Source: an uncultured Kiritimatiellota bacterium (GTDB lineage Bacteria > Verrucomicrobiota > Kiritimatiellia > RFP12 > UBA1067). From it: 33,141 nt of DNA. Of the stretch, positions 7,850 to 26,497 are shown one piece after another; positions within the stretch are counted from its first letter, which is position 1; every line of letters starts with the position of its first letter. The notes under the pieces are model-generated. The model was given only the letters and a program-made list of their open reading frames with translations. It was not told the origin of the DNA and did not search any database. The stretch is from the NCBI GenBank assembly GCA_934667295.1, contig CAKULR010000001.1, forward strand, positions 1 to 33,141. The letters are read 5' to 3'. Both the position numbers and the translations under genes were made by a program.

Positions 7850-8560
7850 CTACTTTAGCCGCTCATGCAGAATCTGCTTGATCAGCGTTTGCGCAGAGAC
7901 ATCTCCGGCCTGTTCCATGAGCTTTTCATAATCGGCAACCTCATCCCCGGAGAACATGACGGAAATCACGCGGCGTTCCTTCCCGGCAATATGCCCGTAG
8001 TTCTCAGGATGGGTCCAGAAGCACCGGACACAGAAAAGCGGATCCTTCCGCGTCCAATTCTCGCAATGCTCGCACGCCCATGACTTCGCCCGGTTCGCCG
8101 AAGGACTCAACAACATGAAGGAGTCAATTTCCCCCACATCGACTTCACCGCCGATTTCGTATGGAATCCGATGGTCGATCTGCAATTCCGCCGGTTCCAT
8201 CTCTTCCAGGTAAATGGAACACCGTGCCCCGTATTTCTCGATCAGGGCCGACTTCAAGGCGCGCGTAAGCGCCGTCCGTCCCTTTGTTTTCTTCGGAGCG
8301 CGCCCCCATTTGGACAAGTCGCCAAATTCGTAGACCGCAATGCGCTTGCCATCATCCGTTTTGATCCGGCGCGTCACAAGCGGGATTCCCAGTTCCCGCA
8401 CATCACGCACCGCACGGGGAGGATGCTCATATCCATAGCATTCCGTCAATTCAGCCGACGTAACGGACCCATGCTTGAGGATATGCTGAATGACGGCACG
8501 GGGACGCTTTGCGGTAACCGCGTTGAGCCGTTCCAGAATGTCCTTCGAGATGCCTACCAC
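7850..8560 (-). CDS. HNH-family restriction endonuclease with an N-terminal winged-helix domain
   Basis: The core is QIDHRIPYEIGG...LLSPSANRAKSWACEHCENW...CVRCFW, i.e. HNH with two CxxC pairs. The N-terminus (RAVIQHILKHGSVTSAELTE...RDVRELGIPL) looks like a wHTH. The GTG start overlaps the methyltransferase stop by 7 nt. The gene is visibly more A+T-rich than its flanks. Confidence 0.75.
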   Translation of the reverse strand: MVGISKDILERLNAVTAKRPRAVIQHILKHGSVTSAELTECYGYEHPPRAVRDVRELGIPLVTRRIKTDDGKRIAVYEFGDLSKWGRAPKKTKGRTALTRALKSALIEKYGARCSIYLEEMEPAELQIDHRIPYEIGGEVDVGEIDSFMLLSPSANRAKSWACEHCENWTRKDPLFCVRCFWTHPENYGHIAGKERRVISVMFSGDEVADYEKLMEQAGDVSAQTLIKQILHERLK

Positions 8561-9483
8561 GATGCCACCCGCTGAAAGTCAAATTCCGCCTGCCGGAGAT
8601 TCGCGTCCCCGTCCGACTGATGTCGATCCAACAAGCCACGACTTACATAGAGGGCTTCATAGGTAATCTGGCGACGCCCCAACAACAGAGCCTGACTTGA
8701 CAATCCCGCATTCAGCAGAATCTTCCGGCACCCCAGTTCGTCCGGCAGGTCAACGCCGTAACCCTTGTCGCCACACGTTCCGTCGTAGCTGATCAAGAAA
8801 TCCACGCCCCGACGGTTCAATTCATGGAGCGACTGGGCGAACTCATCGAACGACAGCCCCGCCACATAACGCTGATCCCGTGCCGTTGAGACACCCTGAT
8901 ACGGCGGATCCATGTAGACAACATCTCCGGGAACAACCTGCTGGAAGATCTCCCGGTAGTCCAGGGATGAAAACTGCGTCCGGCCCTTCAGGAGCGCCGA
9001 TAACGACGGCAGATTCTTCGCAAGCGTTTTCGGTGACGTTCCATGTCTCCGCTTGTCGGGCGACTGATTGAAATTACCATTCCGACCATACCGCACAGAG
9101 CCCTTGACGCAACGCGCCAGGAGGTACATCATGTTCGCCGGGGATCGATCTCCGGCATTGAATCGATCCCGCACGGCATAGAAGTGGGCGAGATGTCCGT
9201 CGGGAAAGTCAAATTGGGCGTTCCACAATTCCGTATAGGAATCCAGCAAGACGTCCGGCGTTTCAATCGCACATGTCAACAACCCGACCAGGGGCGCATT
9301 CAGATCGTTCACCAGATACGAAGCCGCACGGTTCTCCATGGCCGCCGCAATGGTCAAGGCCGCCGTACCCGAGAACGGTTCGACTAGGCGACGAAAACGC
9401 CTTGGCATGTATTGTAGGATCCAAGGCGCAAGAATGCGCTTGGATCCTTGATACTGGACAAGATGTGGCGCCCTCGTCTTCAT
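8554..9483 (-). CDS. Dam-like (D12 class, alpha group) N6-adenine DNA methyltransferase
   Basis: YQGSKRILAPWI, VEPFSGTAAL (SAM-binding FxGxG-type motif) and VVYMDPPYQG (catalytic DPPY) occur in the order typical of the Dam family. Confidence 0.88.
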   Translation of the reverse strand: MKTRAPHLVQYQGSKRILAPWILQYMPRRFRRLVEPFSGTAALTIAAAMENRAASYLVNDLNAPLVGLLTCAIETPDVLLDSYTELWNAQFDFPDGHLAHFYAVRDRFNAGDRSPANMMYLLARCVKGSVRYGRNGNFNQSPDKRRHGTSPKTLAKNLPSLSALLKGRTQFSSLDYREIFQQVVPGDVVYMDPPYQGVSTARDQRYVAGLSFDEFAQSLHELNRRGVDFLISYDGTCGDKGYGVDLPDELGCRKILLNAGLSSQALLLGRRQITYEALYVSRGLLDRHQSDGDANLRQAEFDFQRVASW

Positions 9484-12927: not shown

Positions 12928-13020
12928 GTGAGATTCCAGTGCGTAATAAAATCTCATCTCTGGCGTCTGGACTGGCGGAGATGTCGATCCGTGAGATTTC
13001 ACTGCGTAATAAAATCTCAT
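12928..13020. repeat. Two copies of a 30-nt hairpin-forming repeat separated by a 33-nt unique spacer
   Basis: GTGAGATTCCAGTGCGTAATAAAATCTCAT lies at 12928..12957 and GTGAGATTTCACTGCGTAATAAAATCTCAT at 12991..13020, with 28/30 positions identical. Each can fold as TGAGATT(T)...(A)AATCTCA. The repeats are AT-rich islands in GC-rich DNA. Confidence 0.85.
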
Positions 13021-13205
13021 ATGGCCGGGATCGTAGTTTGCAGAAGCGTTTTCGCCTCGGTAATCAAATATTATGGGCCCAAAGGACACAAACAAAACCT
13101 TTTCGCCCTTTGTGATCTTTGCGGCAAAAATCATCCCATTTCGCCACCCGATCTAAAAGCCGACGATTTTAGCCGTGTAGATGTGTGGAATTGCAGAAAG
13201 AGCGC

Positions 13206-13370
13206 GGCCGCAACAAGTTGCGGCCCTCCCGCCGTCGGAACTGTTCCGACGTGAAATCGCACGGCTGCGCGCGTCCGCCACCGCACATACCGCCATCGGT
13301 CGTGCAGGAGCGCGACCCTCCCGGGAGGGTCGCAACTTATTGCGACCGGGCCCTGCGCACGACGATCCGA
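13206..13370. repeat. REP/MITE-like element, copy 2 (same family as 12669..12797)
   Basis: The left arm is GGCCGCAACAAGTTGCGGCCCTCCCG (13206..13231). The right arm is CGGGAGGGTCGCAACTTATTGCGACC (13322..13347), followed by GGGCCCTGCGCACGACGATCCG. The internal sequence differs from copy 1. Confidence 0.8.
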
Positions 13371-13387
13371 AACGATTCTGTGGTTCA

Positions 13388-14494
13388 TCAGGGGCGAACC
13401 TCATTCTCCATATCGTGCCACGAAGCCTCCAAAAGGGAAAACTGCAAGGTCGCGCTTCGGGCAAAGGCGTCGCACGCCCCCTTGTCCTCAACCTTGATCC
13501 CCGTCTCCTCATCTCCGTCTACGTACAAAGCCGAGGGGTCCGTCGGCGTGCGCTCAAGCTGGACAAATCTCCTTGCCTGTCCCGTCGAATCGTATTCGCA
13601 GATGATTCTTGGCTCGTTGCGTCCTTGGCGGAAACGCACCAGCACGGGAGAACCTGCGCCCTCGTACCGTGCCATCATCTCATATCCAGTTGCTGACATC
13701 TTGGCGACTCCCACCACCATGACGTTCGTCCCGTTCCGGGCAATCTCCATCAAGCCCACAATTCGCCCCACGGACGGAATGTTCTCGTCTGAGAAACACG
13801 AGACCAAGTGTTCCCCTTCCCTCTGGGGAATCCTGTCCTTTCCAGTCTTCATGCAATCACAGGCCTTTGAATACATGCGCCTCGCCCCTCGTAGCAATGT
13901 AAAGGAGGAATGATTCCGGGAGAACCGCCGCATATACTCCCTCCTGTTCTTCCAGAGGGCCTGAAAGGGCAAGTCAAACCGTTCGAAGCCGTTCGCCTCA
14001 ACGTCAAACAATTCCGCGTTGGCAACATCGTAGATAAACAGCCGATGGTTTCGGGCCGTCTCCCGCCCCTTCCCCCTACTCCGACAGTCACTATCGTCAA
14101 ACACAATCAATTGCCGGGAATCGGCAAACCGCCCAGGGACCCTGGCACGTTCGGATTTCCAAGTCCCATTCGTGACCACCACGGACATTCCGCCCGGAAA
14201 ACCGGGTATGTAGAAATAGAGGTTGTCCCCCGATTTCAGCCGAACCTTCTCGCAGGAATCCGCCTCCCGGGACAGCTTCCGATTCCCGCGATTGGAGATC
14301 GACCACCGGAATCGCGTCTCCATCAACGTCACTTCAAGCCCCGCCTCTCCACGCCGTTCAACATGCGAGAAGTGACGGGACAGCACATACGGAAACGTGT
14401 CCTTGAACGTCTCCTTCCCAGCGGCGGCATCCAACGGGGCAATCAACGCCGACACACCTAAAAAGAATACGCACGCCTTGACAATCTGATTCAT
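13388..14494 (-). CDS. Orphan secreted protein (368 aa), no recognisable domain
   Basis: The track ORF is 13388..14938. I start at ATG 14494 (MNQIVKACVFFLGVSALIAPLDAAAG, a signal peptide), which is preceded by GGAGAGGAAAAAGGC. The upstream extension crosses the fusA terminator. The gene is noticeably less G+C-rich than the neighbouring housekeeping genes. Confidence 0.6.
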   Translation of the reverse strand: MNQIVKACVFFLGVSALIAPLDAAAGKETFKDTFPYVLSRHFSHVERRGEAGLEVTLMETRFRWSISNRGNRKLSREADSCEKVRLKSGDNLYFYIPGFPGGMSVVVTNGTWKSERARVPGRFADSRQLIVFDDSDCRSRGKGRETARNHRLFIYDVANAELFDVEANGFERFDLPFQALWKNRREYMRRFSRNHSSFTLLRGARRMYSKACDCMKTGKDRIPQREGEHLVSCFSDENIPSVGRIVGLMEIARNGTNVMVVGVAKMSATGYEMMARYEGAGSPVLVRFRQGRNEPRIICEYDSTGQARRFVQLERTPTDPSALYVDGDEETGIKVEDKGACDAFARSATLQFSLLEASWHDMENEVRP

Positions 14495-14520
14495 GCCTTT
14501 TTCCTCTCCGCGCTCGGAAC

Positions 14521-17705: not shown

Positions 17706-18101
17706 TCAGAACGGAAGGTCGTCGGGATCGCTCGCCGCCGCGGCGGAAGCCTCCATCGCCGGGGCCTCGGCGGGGGCGGGGACCGGCTCGGTGGACGAAC
17801 CGTCGCCGTTCAGCACCTCGATCTTCCAGCCCGTGAGGTCCGTGAAGTAGCGCGTTCCGTTCGGGCCGTCCCAGCGGCGGCCGTCAATCGTGAAGTTGAC
17901 CTTGACCCGGTCGCCCTTCTTCACCGCGTCGCACAGCGCGCAGCGCTCCTTCTTGAAGGTGAAGAGGACGGGGTTCGGGTACTTGTTCATGGAATCCACG
18001 TCATTGCCGACGACGAGTTCCCGTTTCGTGAAGCCATTCGTGCCAAAGGCCTTCGTCTCGCCGACCAACTCGACGACGCCCGTGTAGTCATACGTTGTCA
18101 T
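17706..18101 (-). CDS. DUF3127-like OB-fold protein with an SSB-type acidic C-terminal tip (DPDDLPF)
   Basis: The track ORF is 17706..18500. I start at ATG 18101 (MTTYDYTGVVELVGETKAFG), which is preceded by AAGGAG. The core ...YPNPVLFTFKKERC...GDRVKVNFTIDGRRWDGPNGTRYFTDLTGWKIEV resembles DUF3127. A Pro/Ala linker then ends in DDLPF. Confidence 0.65.
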   Translation of the reverse strand: MTTYDYTGVVELVGETKAFGTNGFTKRELVVGNDVDSMNKYPNPVLFTFKKERCALCDAVKKGDRVKVNFTIDGRRWDGPNGTRYFTDLTGWKIEVLNGDGSSTEPVPAPAEAPAMEASAAAASDPDDLPF

Positions 18102-18127: not shown

Positions 18128-18631
18128 TCATTCTATCAAATCGGCCCCTTGTCCGCAAGATGGCGACGGCAAGAGGGGCGGCGAACGCCGCCCGGACTTC
18201 AACCGGTCGATCCGGTTCGTCCCCCCGGGCCAGACCTTGTCCCTCTCCACAAACCAAACCACGCGCCTCATGTTCTTCTCGGCATAGGCATAGAGCTGCC
18301 GTGCGCCGAGCACCTGGACCGTCGTCGTTTGCGAGCCCCCCTTGACCGGTTCCCGATTGGCCAGGTAGCGCGCAAGATTGTTTCGGGCATCCATGGACGC
18401 CTCGCGATAGAGTTCGGAATCCTTCTCCGCGAATGCCCCCGTGAAGCATTGTTCGGCTTCGCCGTTGTACACATAGCCAACCCGACCACCGACGGTACAT
18501 TCCAGTACGTTCCCGGGAACAAAGACCGCCGGATGCGTTCGCCGTGCGACCTCCAAAGGGCCCAGGTCACACTGCGCAAGCACCGGGAGACCTCCTCCCA
18601 TCAGGCAGATCCATGCGTAAACGGCTTTCAT
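18128..18631 (-). CDS. Exported protein H of the envelope operon, remote LPP20-like
   Basis: The signal peptide is MKAVYAWICLMGGGLPVLAQC. The segment ELYREASMDARNNLARYLANRE...TTTVQVLGARQLYAYAE echoes the DAR...AKA.L.KFL helix plus beta-strand pattern of genes F and G. The SD is GAGGGGAG. Confidence 0.55.
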   Translation of the reverse strand: MKAVYAWICLMGGGLPVLAQCDLGPLEVARRTHPAVFVPGNVLECTVGGRVGYVYNGEAEQCFTGAFAEKDSELYREASMDARNNLARYLANREPVKGGSQTTTVQVLGARQLYAYAEKNMRRVVWFVERDKVWPGGTNRIDRLKSGRRSPPLLPSPSCGQGADLIE

Positions 18632-18653
18632 TCAACCCTGCTCCCCTCGTAAT

Positions 18654-18681
18654 GCCTACAGGAAGTGACCTTCCTGTAGGC
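18654..18681 (-). other. Perfect 12-bp intercistronic stem-loop between operon genes G and H
   Basis: The sequence is GCCTACAGGAAG-TGAC-CTTCCTGTAGGC. No U-tract follows on the coding strand. Confidence 0.75.
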
Positions 18682-18691
18682 GCCCCTCCCC

Positions 18692-19363
18692 CTAGAAATC
18701 CGTATCGGCCTGACGTGTGGCACCTGTGTTCGGTTGATTGGGCAATACGGCGGATCCCGCCGTTCCCGCTTCCCCAACCGCCGCATCGCGGTTCTGCAGA
18801 CTCTGATTGATGCCCTGGGCCGCCATCTGCGCCGCCCTGAGCGTCTTCGAACTCACGCCGACCGTGACCTGAACCTCACCGCCGTTGCCGCGCGGCACCT
18901 TCTGGTCCTTCAGCGTGATCACGCCCGTCAGGATCGCCTCGGACGCGCTGCGGATCGACTCGGTGGCGGTTTTCACCGACTCCTTGCTGACGGCGATCTT
19001 CTGGACCTGCCCATCGGAAGTCATGGATTTCGACTTCCGGGAGACTTCCTCAAGTCCCTCGCTGGACGCGACCTTCTCCTTGAGGAACTTGGAGAGGTTC
19101 GCCTTGGCGCGCATTGTGCCGTCACGCCGGGCATCCTTGACATCATCGGGGTCGTTGAAGTCGTAGATTCCCGTACCACGGGCGAAGATCTGGAACGAGC
19201 CATCCGGCTTGATCGTAATCGCCACGCCGTCGGGCTGGTCAAGTTCGGCCTGTACGGCCGCGTTCCCGGCATTCGCCTGAAGCTGCAGGTCCTGTGCCGC
19301 CTGTGCAAAAGCACCCTGCACGAGCAACATGCCGCTCGCCACGGCGATCATGAGTTTCTTCAT
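18692..19363 (-). CDS. Exported LPP20/FlgP-like protein G (223 aa), paralogue of the N-terminal domain of gene F
   Basis: The signal peptide is MKKLMIAVASGMLLVQGAFA. The segment GTGIYDFNDPDDVKDARRDGTMRAKANLSKFLKEKVASSEGLEE...ESIRSASEAILTGVITLKDQKVP...VQVTVGVSSKT aligns by hand to gene F, with about two thirds of positions identical. Confidence 0.7.
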   Translation of the reverse strand: MKKLMIAVASGMLLVQGAFAQAAQDLQLQANAGNAAVQAELDQPDGVAITIKPDGSFQIFARGTGIYDFNDPDDVKDARRDGTMRAKANLSKFLKEKVASSEGLEEVSRKSKSMTSDGQVQKIAVSKESVKTATESIRSASEAILTGVITLKDQKVPRGNGGEVQVTVGVSSKTLRAAQMAAQGINQSLQNRDAAVGEAGTAGSAVLPNQPNTGATRQADTDF

Positions 19364-19407
19364 TGTCGTATCCTTCCTGTTTTCCTGGTGTTGTTTTCCG
19401 GGATGGA

Positions 19408-20919
19408 CTACTTCTGTCCAATCCAGGTCTCGATTGGTTCGGCAAGCTTGCCGAGTGCCGCCTGAAGGAGGTCGGCGTCCTCATCTTCGGCAAGGAGCCC
19501 CTTGATTTCGTCATTGTCGAGTGTAAGCGTAATTGCGTCGGACTTCACGGCCTGACCGTTCCGCGCGTTCATGAGTGCGACGTCGAGCTTGATCGTCATC
19601 TTGTAGACAGAACCGAACTTCTTGGTCTTCCTGTCCTGCCCGAGTTTTTTGGAATACTTGATATCCCTGATTTCGGTCCGCAGGGTGAAGTCCGGCGTGA
19701 GTCCCGCCCCCGCCAGCATGAGTTCCGAGGCGTTGGAGAGGCCCGCCTCCACCATTACGTCCGTCGTCACCTTGTTCTCGATGACCGTACCGAGCGACTT
19801 GTCGTTGAGGATGAGGAACTTGTTCGCCTTCGCGAGGCCATTCGGCAACGCGAACTGGACAGCCTTGGCAACCTCCGCGCCCGACATACGCACCTTGGGA
19901 CCCAACTGGTAAATCGCCGAACGATCCTCGACGGTCATCGTGGGGCGGCAGACCATCAGCGCCACCGTACCACCCGCACGCGGGTTGACGATAAAGGCGT
20001 AGACCGTCGCCTCCTGTCCACCGTCTTTCGGCACGACCTGAATGACGCGATACTCGCGCACGAACCCCGCCGTCTTCGTCAGCGTTGAGGATGCCTGCTC
20101 CTTGACCGAGGTCTTCATCGTCGCGCTTACCGGCTTGTCCAGCAAAGTGGCATTCGTCTTGATCTTCTTCATGCGTTCACTCATGCGCTCGTCGTTCTGG
20201 ATCAGCTGTCCATACACCTGCGAAATACCCTCCACGAGCGCCTGCTGTACGGCCGTCTTGCGCTCGGATCCAACACCTACGCAGACAATCCACCCCTCCG
20301 GCACGGGCGGCAGTCCCTCCGGCGGCGTCGCGATGCCCGTCCCAATCGGTGCCGCCGCACCGTCCTCCGATGCGGTGGCGGCCGTACCGCGACTGGACAA
20401 CGCCCCCGCGATGCCGTTCGCGGCCGCCGTGGCGGCGGCCGTCGTCTTCGAGCTCACGCCGACCATCACCTTGTAGGAACCGCCGCTGCCGCTGGGGACC
20501 TTAGCGTCCGCCAGGACGACGACGCCCGTCAACAACGCGCTCGCGGACGAACGGATCGACTCCAGCGTTGTCTTGACGCTCGTCTTGGAAACGCCCGTCG
20601 TCTGGGTCTCCCCGTCGGACGAAACGTTCTTGATCTTCTTGGACGCCTCTTCCAGGCCCTCCTGGGACGCAATGTCCTCCTTCAAGAACTTGGCGAGCGT
20701 GGCCTTTGCGCGCTTTTCGGCCTCGCTGCGGGCGTCCTTGATGTCGTCCGGGTCGTTGAAGTCGTACGTCCCCGTGCCGACGGCCGTAATCTGATAGCCT
20801 CCGTCGGGGAACAACTTGACTGCGGCGCCGTCCGGTGCGTCCGCGATGTTCTGTCCCGCCGCGAAAACCCCGCCGGCCAAAACCAGCGAAAGTCCGAGCA
20901 TGTGGATTCTGAAACTCAT
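19408..20919 (-). CDS. Exported three-module protein F (503 aa): two LPP20-like domains plus a C-terminal CsgG/LpoB-like alpha/beta module
   Basis: The signal peptide is MSFRIHMLGLSLVLAGGVFA. Domain 1 is GTGTYDFNDPDDIKDARSEAEKRAKATLAKFLKE...YKVMVGVSSKT. Domain 2 is WIVCVGVGSERKTAVQQALVEGISQVYGQLIQ...REYRVIQVVPKDGGQEATVYAFIV. The tail is VALMVCRPT...LAKANKFLILNDKSLGTVIENK...PDFTLRTEIRDIKY...MTIKLDVALMNARNGQAV, and its pattern is like the CsgG/LpoB/TolB-N fold. Domain calls are by motif resemblance only. Confidence 0.6.
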   Translation of the reverse strand: MSFRIHMLGLSLVLAGGVFAAGQNIADAPDGAAVKLFPDGGYQITAVGTGTYDFNDPDDIKDARSEAEKRAKATLAKFLKEDIASQEGLEEASKKIKNVSSDGETQTTGVSKTSVKTTLESIRSSASALLTGVVVLADAKVPSGSGGSYKVMVGVSSKTTAAATAAANGIAGALSSRGTAATASEDGAAAPIGTGIATPPEGLPPVPEGWIVCVGVGSERKTAVQQALVEGISQVYGQLIQNDERMSERMKKIKTNATLLDKPVSATMKTSVKEQASSTLTKTAGFVREYRVIQVVPKDGGQEATVYAFIVNPRAGGTVALMVCRPTMTVEDRSAIYQLGPKVRMSGAEVAKAVQFALPNGLAKANKFLILNDKSLGTVIENKVTTDVMVEAGLSNASELMLAGAGLTPDFTLRTEIRDIKYSKKLGQDRKTKKFGSVYKMTIKLDVALMNARNGQAVKSDAITLTLDNDEIKGLLAEDEDADLLQAALGKLAEPIETWIGQK

Positions 20920-20934
20920 GGTCTTCCCTCTTGA

Positions 20935-21423
20935 TTATTGAATGATCTTCATGCGAAGCCGGAAATCCGCACAGTCCGTCTTCGGGGCAATCGACGTAAA
21001 CGTGCCGTCGTCACCTGGAATCAGGGTCGTCTTCTCCCAGCCGTCATGGTCGGGATCCTGTACGACGACACCGGCGGCGTCCTGCCAGTCGAAGCGGTAA
21101 CGTGTACGGATGGGTGCCGTCGTCAGGTTCTTGACGAGTACCTGGACACGTGCGTAGCCGTCATTCGTCCGTGAACGGCGGATGTCCTGGACGGCGACCC
21201 ACTGCGGTTGAATACCGTCCAGAATGACCTGCCGATACGCGGCATGGTCGATGGCGGCGACCGGCGCGGCCGTCGCATAGGAGTTGACCTGTGGGACGTA
21301 CACGGGCTGCACGGGTTCAGGTTCCACGGATACGGACACGGCGGGCTGCGCCTCCTCGGAGGCGCAGCCCGCCACGAGGAACACACAGCCCAACAGGATG
21401 CTCGGCACTCTAAATACGTACAT
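20935..21423 (-). CDS. YcfL/DUF1425-family lipoprotein E (162 aa)
   Basis: The track ORF begins at 21474. The ATG at 21423 gives MYVFRVPSILLGCVFLVAGCAS (lipobox VAGC). The family-like core is ARVQVLVKNLTTAPIRTRYRFDWQDAAGVVV...WEKTTLIPGDDGTFTSIAPKTDCADFRLRMK. The start lies 2 nt after the stop of gene D. Confidence 0.7.
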   Translation of the reverse strand: MYVFRVPSILLGCVFLVAGCASEEAQPAVSVSVEPEPVQPVYVPQVNSYATAAPVAAIDHAAYRQVILDGIQPQWVAVQDIRRSRTNDGYARVQVLVKNLTTAPIRTRYRFDWQDAAGVVVQDPDHDGWEKTTLIPGDDGTFTSIAPKTDCADFRLRMKIIQ

Positions 21424-21425
21424 GG

Positions 21426-22685
21426 CTATTTCCCGATGGTGACGGTGAGCGTGTCGCCGTTCTTCTTCGCCCATTCGTCCGTGATCTCAATGTCGTCACC
21501 CAAGAACTCGGGCAGGATCTCGGACACCTTTCCCCAGACGTCGTCGAGGTCGCCGAAGTCCTTGCTCGGCACGACCACGCAGGAAAGCGAGTCCTTGACC
21601 ACCTTGGTCTGCTTGGTCAGCCCTGCGGAGACGAGCGCCTTCTTGAGGCCGTTGCGCACCTTGATCTTGATCTTCCTGTCAACCTGGGAACAGTTGATGA
21701 CGAGCTTCATCGGGCCTTTCGGACGCGCGGCGGCGTTCCGCATGGATTTGACGGTGTGGTTGAGCTTTTCGCCCATCCCCTCGCCGTTCAGAAGCGCGAA
21801 CATCGCGCGCTCGACGCACGTACCGAAGTCCGCCATCACCATGTCGGGCTTGCGGTTGCGCGTGATCTGCTGGAAATCGCGCGTTCCGACGTTGATTGTC
21901 TTGTTGGCCGCGAGGTTCTTGAAGTTCAGCGCAACCGTCGTGCGGATCGCCCCCGTATCCGCGTCGAACGCGAGTGCGTCGATGCGGTAGTAGAGGGCGA
22001 TGGCATCGGGATTGTTCTCCTGTACCGTGCGAAGGAAATCAGGCGTCCGGGTGAAGCCCTTCGTGTCGCCGTTGACATTGTAGCTCACGCCCACGAGCAC
22101 GGGATCCGTCTTCTTCATGTCCTCGTAGTTCTCGTTGTCCTCAAGGAGGATGACCGAGAAACCGAATTCACCGACTTTCTTGACGAGCGCGTCGCGGATA
22201 CGCCGCTGGAACATGTTGTAGCGCGTGAAGAAGAAATTCCCCACCTCGTCCCCCAGCTGCATCTGTCCGACATCCGGCGGTTCCTCCATGACGAAGATCT
22301 CCAGCGAGCCCGCGTCGCCGACGGCGTTGAGGTCGATCCCCTCGCCCTCCAGCCATTTCGCGAGATCCGTCTGCTTGATTGTCACGGTGTAGGAACACGT
22401 CAGTTCGCCATCCTCGTACTCCTGTTCGTCCGCCTCGATGTCCTCGACGAACTTCGCATAGGACGACATGGCCTCGTCGATGACCTTGTCCGTGATGGCC
22501 GCATTGCCCATCTTGACGAGATACTTCTTCACGGCGGTTTTCTTGCCCTGTACCTCGCACTGCTTCCTCAGCGCGGAATTGTTGTCGCCGGCGACCGACA
22601 CCTTGACGGTCACCTCCTCGTCACCCGCAAGGGCCGTGAACGACAAAGCGCACACGGCCATGAGCATTCTTACCATTCTCTTCAT
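21426..22685 (-). CDS. Exported protein D (419 aa), multi-domain, unknown function
   Basis: The signal peptide is MKRMVRMLMAVCALSFTALA. The N-terminal segment LRKQCEVQGKKTAVKKYLVKM...ELTCSYTVTIKQ is vaguely LPP20-like. I recognise nothing in the rest. Confidence 0.6.
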   Translation of the reverse strand: MKRMVRMLMAVCALSFTALAGDEEVTVKVSVAGDNNSALRKQCEVQGKKTAVKKYLVKMGNAAITDKVIDEAMSSYAKFVEDIEADEQEYEDGELTCSYTVTIKQTDLAKWLEGEGIDLNAVGDAGSLEIFVMEEPPDVGQMQLGDEVGNFFFTRYNMFQRRIRDALVKKVGEFGFSVILLEDNENYEDMKKTDPVLVGVSYNVNGDTKGFTRTPDFLRTVQENNPDAIALYYRIDALAFDADTGAIRTTVALNFKNLAANKTINVGTRDFQQITRNRKPDMVMADFGTCVERAMFALLNGEGMGEKLNHTVKSMRNAAARPKGPMKLVINCSQVDRKIKIKVRNGLKKALVSAGLTKQTKVVKDSLSCVVVPSKDFGDLDDVWGKVSEILPEFLGDDIEITDEWAKKNGDTLTVTIGK

Positions 22686-22721
22686 GTGATCATCCTTTCC
22701 TGAGTACGTGTAGACTTGCGA

Positions 22722-22759
22722 GAGGTCCTGTAGAACCTGGCGCCGTTCTACAAGACCTC
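22722..22759 (-). other. 15-bp intercistronic stem-loop between operon genes C and D
   Basis: The sequence is GAGGTCCTGTAGAAC-CTGGCGCC-GTTCTACAAGACCTC with one mismatch. It sits in the only long (93-nt) gap of the operon's upstream half. Confidence 0.7.
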
Positions 22760-22778
22760 GTGTTCAACCTATCCGGCG

Positions 22779-24308
22779 TCAGTCGAGTTTCGCCTTCTTC
22801 GCCGCCTTGTTCCGGGCCTTCTGCGTCTGCTTGAGCTTGGCCGCCTCGCCCAGCGACAGATAGACACGCGAGAGACCGAGCGCAGAATCGAGAGAAGGCT
22901 TCACGTTGAAGGCGAAGCGATAGTAGTCCATCGCCTCGTCCATGCGCTGTGTTGCCTCATTGCAGATGCCGAGCGCGTAGAAGTAGGCGTCCAGGTCCTC
23001 ATCCGCAAGGTACTCGAACATCTTGTCGTTGACTTCCTCGATCTTCTCGCTCGAATCGGGGACGGGGTAGGAAACCGCTTCGCCGAGTTCGGGAAGGTCG
23101 CGGGCCAGCTTCTCGCAGATCTGCCGCCCCATCTTCTGCCGGAGCGTGTAGAGCGCGTAATCCCGGGCCGACTTGAACGCCCCGTTCCTGAGCAGGTTTT
23201 CGAGGCGCGCGTCGCCGAGGTCGGCGGGGACGTCAAACGTCGCCTTGGAGGGCGCGAACTTGGCGACCAGGCCTTTCGAGATGGAAGAGGCCAGCATGAG
23301 CTTCGCCTGCAGTTCCGTCGGCATGGAGACCGTCTCCTGCGTCAGGATGAGCTTTCCGTTGGCGTCGACCCTGCGGTTCGACTTCGGCGTCTCCTCCTCC
23401 TTCTTCGTTTCCTCCTCCTTCTTGTCGCCAAGCATCCCGCCGCCAAGCGCCCCCATGCCGGACAGTCCACCCGTCAATCCAGACGTCAGGGAGGAGGCCA
23501 TCTCGTCCGCGGCCTTGCCGACGTCGGCCATCGACAGCGTCTGCGGCACGAACATGTCCTCGTAGGCCGTGGTGGTCTTCTCGTCCTTGCCCGTCGCCTG
23601 GAGGCGCGTGACGGCGTTGTCGTCCTTCACGCCCACGCTCGCGCAATCGAGCTTCATCTCGCCGTTCATGAGCGTGAAGCCCTGGTTCGTGACCTGGTAC
23701 GTGTCGGTGATCTTGACGATGTTGCCGCTCTGCTCCAGACGGTAGACGGAAAGCGTGAGCATCAACGTCGCATTGCGCACGCGGTAGTCGAGCATCCTGA
23801 TCACGTCCTTGCGCTGCGTCGTGACGTGCGCGACGGCCTGCTCGTCCTTGCCCGTGAGCGGATTCTTCTTCGTGTACGGCACGTTGTTCCACGATTCAAG
23901 CGTGAACTTGTGCGGATACTGCCCCTTCGCCTCGGGGGTGACCGCCCACCAGAGGCGCCCGTAGACAATCGCGTCAAACCGTTTCTTCGGCGTTACGTTC
24001 TCGGCATCGTGGATGTCCTTCTCGATGTCCATGTCGACGATCTGGTACATCGGCGAGGCGTAGAACGCCGACGCCACCGCGCGCTTGACAAGCGCACACG
24101 TCTCCGCATCCGCCGCCATCACGCCCGTGAAGGCATCGCCCTTGAGCGAGTTGAAGTCCGCAAGCGCGATCTTGCTCACGCCGTTGAGCTTCACTTCGCC
24201 CGACACGTTCATCGTGATCGGAATCGTCGGCGTCGAGCAGCCGGCAATCATCGTCGCTACCAGGCCGGCGACCGCAGCCACCCTGAAAATCGTCATATCC
24301 AGTTTCAT
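22779..24308 (-). CDS. Lipoprotein C (509 aa): CsgG/LpoB-like N-terminal region, Gly/Lys/Glu-rich linker, TPR-like helical tail
   Basis: The lipobox is in MKLDMTIFRVAAVAGLVATMIAGCS. The N-terminal part has KIALADFNS...LVKRAVASAFYASPMYQIVD...DAIVYGRLW and NATLMLTLSVYRLEQSGNIV. The linker is GLSGMGALGGGMLGDKKEEETKKEEE. The tail is AYFYALGICNEATQRMDEAMDYYRFAFNVKPSLDSALGLSRVYLSLGE. Confidence 0.6.
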   Translation of the reverse strand: MKLDMTIFRVAAVAGLVATMIAGCSTPTIPITMNVSGEVKLNGVSKIALADFNSLKGDAFTGVMAADAETCALVKRAVASAFYASPMYQIVDMDIEKDIHDAENVTPKKRFDAIVYGRLWWAVTPEAKGQYPHKFTLESWNNVPYTKKNPLTGKDEQAVAHVTTQRKDVIRMLDYRVRNATLMLTLSVYRLEQSGNIVKITDTYQVTNQGFTLMNGEMKLDCASVGVKDDNAVTRLQATGKDEKTTTAYEDMFVPQTLSMADVGKAADEMASSLTSGLTGGLSGMGALGGGMLGDKKEEETKKEEETPKSNRRVDANGKLILTQETVSMPTELQAKLMLASSISKGLVAKFAPSKATFDVPADLGDARLENLLRNGAFKSARDYALYTLRQKMGRQICEKLARDLPELGEAVSYPVPDSSEKIEEVNDKMFEYLADEDLDAYFYALGICNEATQRMDEAMDYYRFAFNVKPSLDSALGLSRVYLSLGEAAKLKQTQKARNKAAKKAKLD

Positions 24309-24325
24309 CGTCTCAATCCCTTCTC

Positions 24326-25417
24326 TTACTTCGAGAACTTGGTGTCCTTGTTCTGCTTCGCGCCCGATTCCTTCACGGCGCGCCTGCCGGCCAACGTGTC
24401 CAGCACGCGCTGGTGCCCGGCCTTGGCGGTCGGCGATCCGGGATCGGCCTTCATCGCCTTCGCATAGACGTCGCGCGCGCTGAAGAAGTCGCCCATGGCC
24501 TCATGCGCGATCGCGAGGTTTTCAAGGTCGGCGGCTTTCGCCCGTCCCGCGACCTCCAGCTTTTCAACGACCGACACGACCTCCGGAAACGCCTTGGCGT
24601 TCAGGAGGTGGACGACGCGCTCGTCTCCACCCTCGATGGCGACCAGTTCGCGGGTCACCTTGTACGGCGAGATGTCCGCGACAATCCCGTTCACCGCCGG
24701 CGTGACGGCGGCGGCAAGCGCCTTGAGCTGCGACGGCTCGGCGGCGTCGAAGCGGTCCGCCTCCGGCATCGAGATCTGGAAGTCGTTCGCGTACGGCAGA
24801 GGCGGTTCGGTACCGTTCGGACCGACGAACTTCGCCTTGAGCGTGCCTTTGGCGACGACTTCGTAGACCGTAACCTCCTGCTTCACCTGCTCGACGACCG
24901 TGGCCTTCACGTCCGGTTCGCTCGTCGGCACGTCCTTGACCTTCTTCGGCTTGTAGGGGACCGTGGTCAACGTGAAGGGAATCTCCCTCTTGACGGGCTT
25001 CGCGTCCAGCGCCAAGTCGAGCGTGACGTCGATCACGACCTTTTCCGCGCCCTGTCCCATCGCCGCGAGGCCTGCGTAGCCGTGGCCGGAATCCCTGTCC
25101 TTGACCATCTTCTCCAGTTCGCCGGCACCCTCCGCAGTGGACCAGATGTCGTCCGCCACCCGGTAGTACCCTTCCTTGTACAGGCGCATGGCCAGCAGCT
25201 GCTTGACCAGGCCGGCGTTCCGCCTGTTGTCGCCGGCCAGATTGCCCGTGACATTGGCCTTGACCCGGATGGCCGCCACGTTCACCTTGCCGACGTCCTG
25301 GACGGCCTTCGCCGGCATGACGTAATCGACCATGATCTTCTCGGACGCGCATCCACCCAGAAACGCAATCATCCCGGTCACCAGACCGAACGCACCGATC
25401 TTCACAATGCTCTTCAT
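24326..25417 (-). CDS. Lipoprotein B (363 aa): CsgG/LpoB-like N-terminal region and TPR-like tail
   Basis: The lipobox is in MKSIVKIGAFGLVTGMIAFLGGCAS. The N-terminal part is VAAIRVKANVTGNLAGDNRRNAGLVKQLLAMRLYKEGYYRV. The tail is LENLAIAHEAMGDFFSARDVYAKAMKADPGSPTA. The SD is AGGAAGGTGA. Confidence 0.6.
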   Translation of the reverse strand: MKSIVKIGAFGLVTGMIAFLGGCASEKIMVDYVMPAKAVQDVGKVNVAAIRVKANVTGNLAGDNRRNAGLVKQLLAMRLYKEGYYRVADDIWSTAEGAGELEKMVKDRDSGHGYAGLAAMGQGAEKVVIDVTLDLALDAKPVKREIPFTLTTVPYKPKKVKDVPTSEPDVKATVVEQVKQEVTVYEVVAKGTLKAKFVGPNGTEPPLPYANDFQISMPEADRFDAAEPSQLKALAAAVTPAVNGIVADISPYKVTRELVAIEGGDERVVHLLNAKAFPEVVSVVEKLEVAGRAKAADLENLAIAHEAMGDFFSARDVYAKAMKADPGSPTAKAGHQRVLDTLAGRRAVKESGAKQNKDTKFSK

Positions 25418-25435
25418 CGTCTCATCACCTTCCTG

Positions 25436-26365
25436 TTATTCACCAAGATTGGAACGCTTGTATTCAAGGCGTGCCAGCGCGACCGGGACGGCCTCCGCAA
25501 GTCCCTTTGCATCCGAAGCCCGCAGGATCATCATCTGTTCGTCCTGGATCTTCTTCAACTCGGCCGGATCCTGCACAAGCGCCTCCTTCACGAGAAGGTA
25601 CAGGTAGTAGTTACCGAGCCGCAGATCCGCGTCCGAGCCCTCATACGTCTTGGTGCGCAGCTGTTCGCAGAGCTTCGCCAGGTCTGTCGCTCCAATCTGC
25701 CTGTAGCGCTGGAGAAAGGGCGTGTAGGCTTTTCGGTCCCCCTTGGCAAATCCCACGCCGCCCTTCGTGAACAGTTCGCGCAGTGAACCATCCGCCTCCA
25801 GCGGCATGGGCGTCTCGACCTGTTTCTGCTGCGTGATGAACACATCCTTCACGCGCTCGACGACTTCCGCCGCGAACTGCGCCTCGAAGTCGGCGGCCTT
25901 GCGGACGACGGCGTTCGTATTGTCGCCCGAATAAATCGGAACTTCAAGATAATGGACGGGGGCGAGCGTCTTCGTCTCGTACACCGCGACGCCGACGCCA
26001 GTGGCGGCACTGGCAAGGTTCCGGTCAGTTTCCGTCAGAACCTCCGTTCCGCCGCTTTCGTTTTCCTGCTTGTCAACCGAAACCGTCTTCTGTGGCACGC
26101 TTTCAAGGTACTGTCTCGACCCGTTGAGGACAAACCAGTAGTCCGCCTTCTCTTCGACAACTTGGAGGACCCCGCTCTTCTTGAACTCGTCCGTCAGCGC
26201 CGTGGCAATCGGCGTGAGCGCATCGCCATTCGCGACGATCTTCACCTTGGCCTTGTCCTTCAACGGAACCTCCGCAAAGGAAGTAACCGTATACTGGGCC
26301 ATTTCAACAGAAGCGCAGCCTCCCAAAAGGAGGGCCGTGCCAACCCCCAACCATCTTGCTTTCAT
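25436..26365 (-). CDS. Lipoprotein A (309 aa), first gene of the envelope operon, helical C-terminal half
   Basis: The track ORF begins at 26416. The ATG at 26365 gives MKARWLGVGTALLLGGCAS (lipobox LGGC) and is preceded by AAGGAAAG. The C-terminal half (DLRLGNYYLYLLVKEALVQDPAELKK...) looks like a helical repeat. Confidence 0.6.
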   Translation of the reverse strand: MKARWLGVGTALLLGGCASVEMAQYTVTSFAEVPLKDKAKVKIVANGDALTPIATALTDEFKKSGVLQVVEEKADYWFVLNGSRQYLESVPQKTVSVDKQENESGGTEVLTETDRNLASAATGVGVAVYETKTLAPVHYLEVPIYSGDNTNAVVRKAADFEAQFAAEVVERVKDVFITQQKQVETPMPLEADGSLRELFTKGGVGFAKGDRKAYTPFLQRYRQIGATDLAKLCEQLRTKTYEGSDADLRLGNYYLYLLVKEALVQDPAELKKIQDEQMMILRASDAKGLAEAVPVALARLEYKRSNLGE

Positions 26366-26467
26366 AGCTTTCCTTGTTGTACTCACACAAAGGTGAACCG
26401 ATGTTGTTGTTTTCACTCAGAACCGGGCTTTCGGCATGCCGTCGAGTGCCCAATCCCTTTACGGAAA

Positions 26468-26497
26468 ATTTTACATCTTCGACGGGTTGGCTATCAA
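26468..26497 (-). promoter_or_regulatory. Candidate sigma70 promoter of the envelope operon
   Basis: The minus strand has TTGATA, an 18-nt spacer, then TAAAAT. This sits in the AT-rich 219-nt gap between the AraC gene and gene A and implies a leader of about 95 nt. The direct repeats GTGAAAT (26534..26528) and GTGAATT (26520..26514) lie just upstream of the -35. Confidence 0.35.

Follow-up and report, generated by a model that had tools for sequence, protein, structure and literature searches.

In a stretch of 33,141 nucleotides (nt) from an uncultured Kiritimatiellota bacterium (assembly GCA_934667295.1, contig CAKULR010000001.1, positions 1 to 33,141; hereafter the window), eight genes that we call A to H lie in tandem on the minus strand, from position 26365 down to 18128, and each encodes an exported protein. 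We put at about one half the probability that these eight proteins build a periplasmic ring or plate that is tethered to the outer membrane, self-contained and independent of any energy supply. The parts from which such an assembly would be made are familiar ones, namely the DUF1425 domain, SHS2/LPP20-like domains, CsgG/TolB-N-like domains and tetratricopeptide repeats (TPR); what is new is their combination in a putative envelope scaffold.

All the features of the operon that are described below lie on the minus strand. The gaps between successive genes measure, from A to H, 18, 17, 93, 2, 15, 44 and 60 nt, exactly as the first-pass annotation of this DNA had given them, and gene calling on an identical metagenome scaffold (locus L001, ENA ERZ28614901) independently yielded eight identical products. 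The same annotation had assigned to every gene its own Shine-Dalgarno (SD) sequence and to every product a signal peptide. A purine-rich SD-like motif does precede all eight starts, that of E (GGGAAA) being weak, and all eight products begin with a hydrophobic segment, with no window resembling a transmembrane helix further on. Four of them carry the lipoboxes that had been attributed to them: A (25436-26365, 309 amino acids (aa), LGGC), B (24326-25417, 363 aa, LGGC), C (22779-24308, 509 aa, IAGC) and E (20935-21423, 162 aa, VAGC). The lipobox Cys is invariant in the alignments of 9-11 homologues of A, B and C (G16 and C17 among the 11 aligned homologues of A, G22 and C23 among those of B, C24 among those of C), and a lipobox or lipobox-like motif was found in 10 of 10 E homologues checked. 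D (21426-22685, 419 aa, with a signal peptide and no lipobox), F (19408-20919, 503 aa, three domains and a disordered linker) and G (18692-19363, 223 aa) have the signals of soluble periplasmic proteins; a Cys after the signal peptide is absent from all three, again as first described, and from their homologues. The last gene, H (18128-18631), encodes a short form, 167 aa in length, of an exported protein. Searches of Pfam, NCBIfam and PADLOC with the eight proteins revealed no enzyme, ATPase or membrane-protein family, and the only family match above its cut-off was that of E to DUF1425; the profile comparison that had been proposed as a check therefore produced no confident match to a characterised system. 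Sequence searches of the PDB with F, E and the family profiles of A-D returned TPR structures for B and C and 4gio for E and nothing else, and none of the genes A-H encodes a beta-barrel protein.

The genes are inherited as one block. Databases hold about 130 homologues of F, each of about 500 aa and at least 45% identical to it; they derive from metagenomes or metagenome-assembled genomes, a part of which are labelled rumen (RUG), and the only source name that they bear is 'Kiritimatiellae bacterium'. An exhaustive search with the F profile returned 833 representatives. The order A-B-C-D-E-F-G-H is kept at five of the six F-bearing genome loci (L003-L008), the contig of L003 ending inside G, and the sixth, L008, retains A-F without G and H. 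Two of these loci, L004 (CAVCXQ010000027.1) and L007 (CAVDHG010000091.1), are filed under Muribaculaceae and Agathobacter rectalis. Contamination during binning is the probable explanation, since their operons are of the Kiritimatiellae type, with F identities of 56-73% and a G+C content of 60-64%. The same eight genes recur in a more divergent branch (L016 and L017, 49% G+C), and homologues of A-F with 25-40% identity occur in a much more distant lineage (L009-L011, 35-38% G+C; L018, 44% G+C), where the core reads A-B-C-D-E-F in L018 and A-B-C-D-F-E in L009-L011. The synteny that had been suggested as a test of the A-B-C triplet and the E-F pair is thus conserved in independent genomes, with E and F exchanged in three of them. 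The flanking genes differ in every lineage and the loci span 35-64% G+C. Because gene order is conserved between lineages whose flanks are unrelated, we regard the block as a real and autonomous unit, and the comparison of loci resolves it into a six-gene core, A-F, with lineage-specific additions that in the lineage of the window are G and H. Every carrier found comes from a metagenome or a metagenome-assembled genome.

The additions of the distant lineage are of another kind. Downstream of the core, L009-L011 carry X, a paralogue of F (550-590 aa), then the TPR protein Y and, last, Z, a membrane protein bearing an HExxH motif; in L018 a 590-aa gene occupies the position of X. Proteins of the Z type, which also close some of the nearer versions of the operon (L009 16439-17227, L011 16210-17049, L005 14280-15071, L008 14189-14980), are polytopic membrane proteins of about 263 aa, two of the four copies giving a weak, below-threshold match to Peptidase_M50B. 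This protein, which is absent from the window, is the only candidate for an inner-membrane or enzymatic partner of the system. The earlier assertion that the operon includes no enzyme, ATPase or inner-membrane component consequently holds in the window, but it does not extend to the distant operons that end with the HExxH protein.

The central components of the proposed assembly are D and F, which AlphaFold models predict to be two FlgT-like periplasmic proteins; each pairs an SHS2/Lpp20-type domain with a domain of the CsgG/PelC/PqiC/TolB-N type, as Vibrio FlgT does. D is the best conserved of the eight proteins. Its model, built from 43 sequences (pLDDT 83, pTM 0.67), has three domains in a FlgT-like arrangement, and Foldseek aligns it to FlgT (3w1e, 3.9e-7), to FlgT within the LPHT ring (8z5n, 7.9e-7), to CsgG (1.3e-4) and to GNA1162 (2.2e-4), with further matches to PelC, a PqiC-like protein and Lpp20. 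By domain boundaries read from the model, residues ~21-115 (22341-22625) form an SHS2/Lpp20-like N-terminal domain (strand-helix-strand-strand) and residues ~125-322 (21720-22313) an alpha/beta domain of the CsgG/PelC/GNA1162/PqiC-like kind. The LPP20-like character that had been surmised for the D N-terminus accords with a Foldseek match to Lpp20 (5ok8; probability 0.97-0.98, E 0.025-0.034), the whole protein being FlgT-like as well. By sequence D has no Pfam or PDB match.

The model of F, from a 35-sequence alignment, has a mean pLDDT of 67, with 70-92 inside the domains. Its best Foldseek match is again FlgT (3w1e, 5.5e-8), followed by FlgT in the LPHT ring (8z5n, 1.6e-7) and CsgG (5e-6), then by the PqiC-like XCC0632 (2iqi), GNA1162, HpaA, CT253, PelC and LptE. 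For both D and F the FlgT matches reach a probability of 1.00 over about 330 aligned columns at 7-11% identity. The N-domain of F (residues ~29-160, 20440-20835), delimited from its paralogue G and from the model, is SHS2-like with an insert of ~50 aa after the helix. Beyond a disordered linker, the middle domain (residues ~208-312, 19984-20298 in the model) is of the SHS2/LPP20 type, in the order strand, helix, long insert, strand, strand; its hydrophilic insert of ~45 aa (residues 238-284, nt 20068-20208) is modelled as a long beta-hairpin, and 11 of the 32 residues in the hairpin strands are charged. The SHS2 topology is thus present in the models of both proteins. The C-terminal domain (residues ~316-503, 19411-19974), the most confidently modelled at pLDDT 80-92, is an alpha/beta domain resembling CsgG, LpoB and TolB-N that has neither a lipid anchor nor amphipathic membrane hairpins.

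Family models follow these likenesses only in part. Against Pfam LPP20 (PF02169, cut-off 25.9 bits) F scores 14.5 bits (E 0.05) and its distant homologues 14-15.8 bits (E 0.019 and 0.071 in two of them), and G and D give no LPP20 match. The assignment of two LPP20-type domains to F and one to G, made in the first-pass annotation, is nevertheless upheld by the models and by the identity between F and G that is described below. The likeness of the F C-terminus to CsgG, LpoB and TolB-N, also proposed there, finds agreement in Foldseek: F of the window has no Pfam CsgG match at E up to 1, but its distant homologues P0167 and P0202 pass the CsgG model (PF03783) with 35.2 and 33 bits against a cut-off of 20.8, and because they do so in the matching region, the domain can be considered a divergent member of the CsgG superfamily. 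Profile-profile comparison of D with F was null, so that the likeness between the two goes unseen at the level of sequence; no FlgT or flagellar model matches either of them in all of Pfam-A at E up to 1, and searches of PDB sequences with D and F did not find 3w1e.

G is a free-standing copy of the N-domain of F, residues 35-205 being 56% identical to residues 20-190 of F, and in both the insert of ~50 residues stands at the place equivalent to that of the insert in the F middle domain. Many of the best matches of the F profile are likewise proteins of ~180-260 aa that align to the N-domain only. The tail of G is rich in Gln and Asn and has a conserved ...TDF at its end. The G homologues of L004-L007, L012 and L016 all terminate in R-x-A/S-x-T/S-D/L-F, and G of the window in TRQADTDF (18692-18730). 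This motif might serve to dock G onto the TPR-like tails of the lipoproteins, an idea prompted by the best natural PDB matches of the B profile, which are the TPRs of Hop/STI1 that clamp C-terminal peptides.

H is conserved across residues ~8-135 only; its last ~30 residues (3' end, 18128-18230) are not, and no sequence method detected an LPP20 fold in it. In L004-L006 and L016 the H homologues have 314-331 aa, with an additional, weakly TPR-like tail of ~170 aa. The 3' end of the operon adjoins a DUF3127 gene (17706-18101) and prmC in the window, and this junction, together with the short form of H, suggests that the 3' end of the operon has been rearranged. G, H and the N-domain of F form a co-varying sub-module, because L008 lacks all three together and L012 (2319-4075) has a G-G-H set alone, without A-F, between toxin-antitoxin genes. 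In L014 (718-3360) a G-like gene and two unassigned neighbours adjoin the gene of a relaxase. Independent movement of the G/H sub-module is possible.

Among the lipoproteins, B and C end in a common TPR-like module. In B an N-terminal part of ~240 aa without a recognised fold precedes a TPR-like tail (residues ~270-345, 24383-24610, located with the family profile against the PDB). The B family profile matches consensus-TPR and Hop/STI1 TPR chains in the PDB with E values from 2.8e-31 to 6e-7, and Pfam TPR_2 is found in eight of nine family members; B of the window, taken alone, falls under the TPR cut-off (21 vs 27 bits). C consists of a conserved N-terminal part of ~250 aa, a Gly/Lys/Glu-rich linker of variable length that is missing from the distant homologues in L009 and L011, and a C-terminal helical module (residues ~342-495, 22824-23285). 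The TPR signal of this module is weak (7e-4; three of nine members of the C family), and it is homologous to residues 244-352 of B (hhalign 96.5%, E 8.4e-10). The TPR tails that had been read into B and C are in this way both recovered, that of B strongly in its family profile and that of C more weakly. In A the C-terminal half, which looks helical to judge from the sequence, finishes with a conserved LARLEYK, but the protein has no Pfam or PDB match and hence no detected TPR. The first ~70 residues of A weakly resemble B (68%) and C (49%) in hhalign, partly on account of the signal peptide. No sequence method gives a match to the N-terminal half of A, B or C, and the CsgG/LpoB/TolB-N-like modules that the first-pass annotation had placed in those of B and C are without sequence support: no member of the B and C families gives a signal for CsgG, LpoB, TolB or DUF799 (Pfam, E up to 10), hhalign comparisons of B and C with F and with D were null, and neither A, B and C nor their families match LpoB (PF13036).

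E is a member of the DUF1425/YcfL family, as the first reading had it: residues 66-158 score 54.6 bits against Pfam PF07233 (cut-off 28.3), and the same domain is found in the E homologues of L001, L009-L011 and L016-L019. In the PDB it matches 4gio, a 'putative lipoprotein' (E 1.1e-4), which we take to be Cj0090 of Campylobacter jejuni. Between the lipid anchor and the domain is a Pro-rich tether of ~45 aa, an architecture like that of the long tether of LpoB. The E homologues of L003, L005 and L006 have such tethers of ~30-50 residues with up to 10 consecutive Pro; A, B and C have none.

How such proteins might come together can be envisaged as follows. A, B, C and E, in which position +2 is never Asp, would be anchored in the inner leaflet of the outer membrane, the first three lying flat against it and E hanging on its tether of ~45 residues. 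F, probably with D, would oligomerise into a ring or plate. G might co-assemble with the N-domain of F, by analogy with FlgQ beside FlgP (the place of FlgQ in the basal disk being itself unproven), H would ride along with G, and the TPR-like tails would fasten the soluble parts to the lipoproteins. The resulting scaffold would stiffen or organise the space between the outer membrane and the peptidoglycan, or serve as a platform for other envelope proteins. PelC is a dodecamer and CsgG a nonamer; we propose a ring for F because its alpha/beta fold is one that ring oligomers use and because its SHS2 insert sits where FlgP has the hairpin that zips its ring together. FlgP, Lpp20 and FlgT share the SHS2-type fold, and in the FlgP family the formation of rings is associated with an insert that separates the helix from the second strand of that fold, a long hairpin in FlgP that builds a continuous sheet around the ring (PMC12222027). 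A Foldseek list nearly identical to those of D and F has been reported for a PqiC-like octameric lipoprotein, and most of the proteins in that list have been grouped as outer-membrane lipoproteins with a single alpha/beta core (PMC13631591). The role of A-H is most likely structural, and a role in transport is unlikely.

Several points weigh against this reading. The FlgT matches of D and F have TM-scores of just 0.18-0.28, values that are low because the domains are oriented differently. The hairpin of the F insert is modelled at a pLDDT of 34-42, so that the existence of the insert is firm and its shape is not. The ring or plate is drawn from monomer models of D and F, and sequence methods recognise no fold in A, in H or in the N-terminal halves of B and C. 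The sorting of A, B, C and E to the outer membrane follows from the +2 rule of E. coli, which may not hold in bacteria of the Planctomycetes-Verrucomicrobia-Chlamydiae (PVC) group. A bolder form of the idea, a non-flagellar ring or disk made of H-ring and basal-disk modules beneath the outer membrane of the Kiritimatiellae and of a second, low-G+C lineage, is a speculation that we entertain without favouring it. If it were true, the assembly would be a free-living relative, or an ancestor-like survivor, of flagellar add-ons and would reveal a role for such disks outside motility.

Of the other explanations, the one that deserves the closest attention, improbable as we judge it, dispenses with a ring altogether. 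The ycfL gene adjoins lpoB in E. coli, and A-H might be an elaborated relative of the YcfL-LpoB and Cj0089-Cj0090-Cj0091 operons, regulating peptidoglycan synthases or hydrolases across the periplasm and thereby preserving the integrity of the envelope. E, as a DUF1425/YcfL lipoprotein related to 4gio with a tether in the style of LpoB, would fit well here, as would the presence of the TPR-tailed lipoproteins B and C in the same operon. Cj0090 of C. jejuni (122 aa) is flanked by a TPR lipoprotein of 453 aa and by the 207-aa lipoprotein Cj0091 (PMC3100323), whose orthologue HP1457 is an LpoB homologue (PMC11394524), so that the Campylobacter trio joins the same three types of component. Loss of the TPR homologue HP0018 in Helicobacter pylori is reported to disturb the envelope and give chains of outer-membrane vesicles, and HP0018 co-precipitates with the hydrolases MltD and AmiA (PMC11394524). 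Distant F homologues do give weak LpoB matches; the best of them, however, scores 19.3 bits against a cut-off of 22.3, and none of the A-H proteins reaches that cut-off. No gene for a penicillin-binding protein (PBP) or a hydrolase is linked to the operon at the loci examined, and eight proteins, two of them FlgT-like with ring-type features, go far beyond what a regulator would need.

The FlgT-like proteins invite a flagellar interpretation, in which A-H would be motor accessories, an H-ring-like or basal-disk-like scaffold encoded away from the core genes, with TPR lipoproteins loosely like PflA/PflB or MotX. In Campylobacter the genes of the disk are dispersed and do not form a cluster. FlgT is the leading structural match of both D and F, and the F insert is at the position of the FlgP hairpin. 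TPR proteins accompany disks of this sort (PMC12222027), and at least one cultured member of the Kiritimatiellota has a full set of flagellar genes, though it is non-motile (PMC10880615), as are all five of the five cultured members tabulated in that work. We nonetheless hold a flagellar role to be quite unlikely. The fold is common in proteins that have nothing to do with flagella (PMC13631591), F and G are not lipidated as FlgP is, and membership in the FlgT and FlgP families failed in Pfam. Flagellar, motor and chemotaxis families of Pfam are absent from the 33-kb window and, elsewhere, from flanks of up to ~10 kb on each side, which is weak evidence against such a role. Upstream of A, motifs for sigma28, sigma54 and extracytoplasmic function (ECF) sigma factors are lacking at all loci with the exception of one loose sigma28-like match in L006, sigma70-like boxes being found instead. 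More improbable still is an export gate of the CsgG (type VIII) or PelC kind, in which F would be the channel or funnel, G and/or H the cargo and the TPR lipoproteins the adaptors. It would account for the CsgG membership of the distant F homologues, for the structural matches to CsgG and PelC, for the Gln/Asn-rich tail and conserved C-terminal Phe of G and for the occurrence of G-like genes alone in other contexts. Yet G, as the paralogue of an F domain, is folded and is not a repeat amyloid, and neither a PelB-like barrel partner nor CsgA/B/E/F-like or polysaccharide genes are linked. F as a CsgG-type pore is rejected: it has no lipobox, no barrel is encoded, and the charged residues of its long strands (7/18, 7/16 and 4/16, or 25-45%) are incompatible with membrane hairpins like those of CsgG, the model being closer to the pre-pore form of CsgG (4uv2) than to its membrane form (4uv3). 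The first-pass annotation had spoken of a ring, cage or pore; a ring or cage is still the most economical proposal, and a pore is unlikely.

The signals and surroundings of the operon offer some hints about its control. The intergenic region between A and the adjacent AraC gene contains, on the minus strand, a single sigma70-like site, the promoter candidate TTGATA-18-TAAAAT (26497-26468), about 100 nt upstream of A. Sigma70-like sites are no more numerous in the region upstream of A than in shuffled sequence; -10-like boxes lie 100-200 nt upstream of A at other loci too. No terminator-like site was found on the minus strand within the A-H block, and scans of the window for Rfam families and tRNAs returned nothing. 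Control by the neighbouring AraC regulator, which had been postulated at the outset, is unsupported because the adjacency is not conserved: AraC, DUF3127 and PrmC are neighbours of the operon only in the window and in L001, a scaffold of the same organism. In the low-G+C lineage a block divergent from A (L009 814-3809, L010 55-3050, L011 2900-4845) encodes a protein of ~190-230 aa, a protein of 71-75 aa and a Ser/Thr kinase, with a trypsin-like protease added in L009 and L010; the ~190-230-aa protein has a weak sigma-70 region-2 match, in L011 only. This block hints at regulation of the envelope-stress type rather than by AraC.

In composition the operon differs from its surroundings as first described, the difference being real but small: 61.2% G+C against 65.3% and 65.1% in the two flanks. 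Its G+C at third codon positions (GC3) is 0.71-0.88, that of most neighbouring genes ~0.85-0.95, and only a few flank genes, among them those of AraC and of a methyltransferase island, have a GC3 as low or lower. A mobile island was considered for A-H and rejected, given a dip of just 4 points in G+C and the vertical conservation of the operon; a defence system was dismissed on the null result of PADLOC. Elsewhere in the window, positions 7850-9483 hold the genes of an HTH_39 protein and a D12-class N6-adenine DNA methyltransferase with a GC3 of 0.66 against ~0.9 nearby, possibly a small acquired island, and positions 13000-14500 (56% G+C) have overlapping open reading frames on both strands that give no Pfam match.

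The prevailing view is that the disks of FlgP and FlgT and the rings of PelC, PqiC and CsgG were recruited from wider families of envelope proteins, whose free-standing relatives have hardly been described. A-H is a candidate for such a stand-alone assembly, because it unites these modules with YcfL-like and TPR lipoproteins in one unit that has no transporter, no cargo and no motor. The operon comes from gut and rumen Kiritimatiellae, bacteria whose envelope is almost unstudied; it gives a context to DUF1425/YcfL, a widespread lipoprotein family without an assigned function, and it bears on the origin of flagellar disks and lipoprotein rings.

We found no description of the A-H operon in the literature on DUF1425/YcfL, CsgG-like and FlgT/FlgP/LPP20-like proteins, and as an ensemble it fails the membership tests for the FlgT/H-ring, FlgP/LPP20, CsgG/curli, LpoB and Pel systems. 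The initial opinion that it fits no named system therefore stands, as does the statement that flagellar, curli and PBP genes are not nearby, which holds for the whole 33-kb window; families of the csgA/B/E/F type are absent from the related loci also, and Pel, porin and polysaccharide genes are not linked in the window. To the Pel export system the likeness is that of PelC at the level of fold only, with no PelB and no pelA-G. The alpha/beta domains of D and F belong to the same fold group as CsgG, PelC, PqiC and LptE, several of which form rings of 8, 9 or 12 subunits; these proteins, however, are lipidated and have a transporter, barrel or substrate encoded nearby, whereas D and F are soluble and their locus has no transporter or cargo genes. 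By the types of its parts, E beside TPR-tailed lipoproteins and proteins with the LpoB/CsgG fold, the operon can be likened to Cj0089-Cj0091 and to ycfL-lpoB, but the C. jejuni operon has three small genes, for which adherence and vesiculation phenotypes alone are on record, and here there are eight. SHS2-type domains of the FlgP/Lpp20 kind occur in F (twice), G and D, and the pairing of F with its free paralogue G recalls that of FlgP with FlgQ; in contrast to FlgP, the LPP20 scores are below cut-off, F and G are unlipidated and there is no flagellar context. The nearest comparison is with Vibrio FlgT, like D and F a periplasmic protein that is not a lipoprotein and that combines SHS2-type with TolB-N/CsgG-type domains. 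FlgT forms a ring associated with the outer membrane; flgO, flgP, motX, motY and other flagellar genes are not linked to the operon, which encodes two such proteins together with four lipoproteins.

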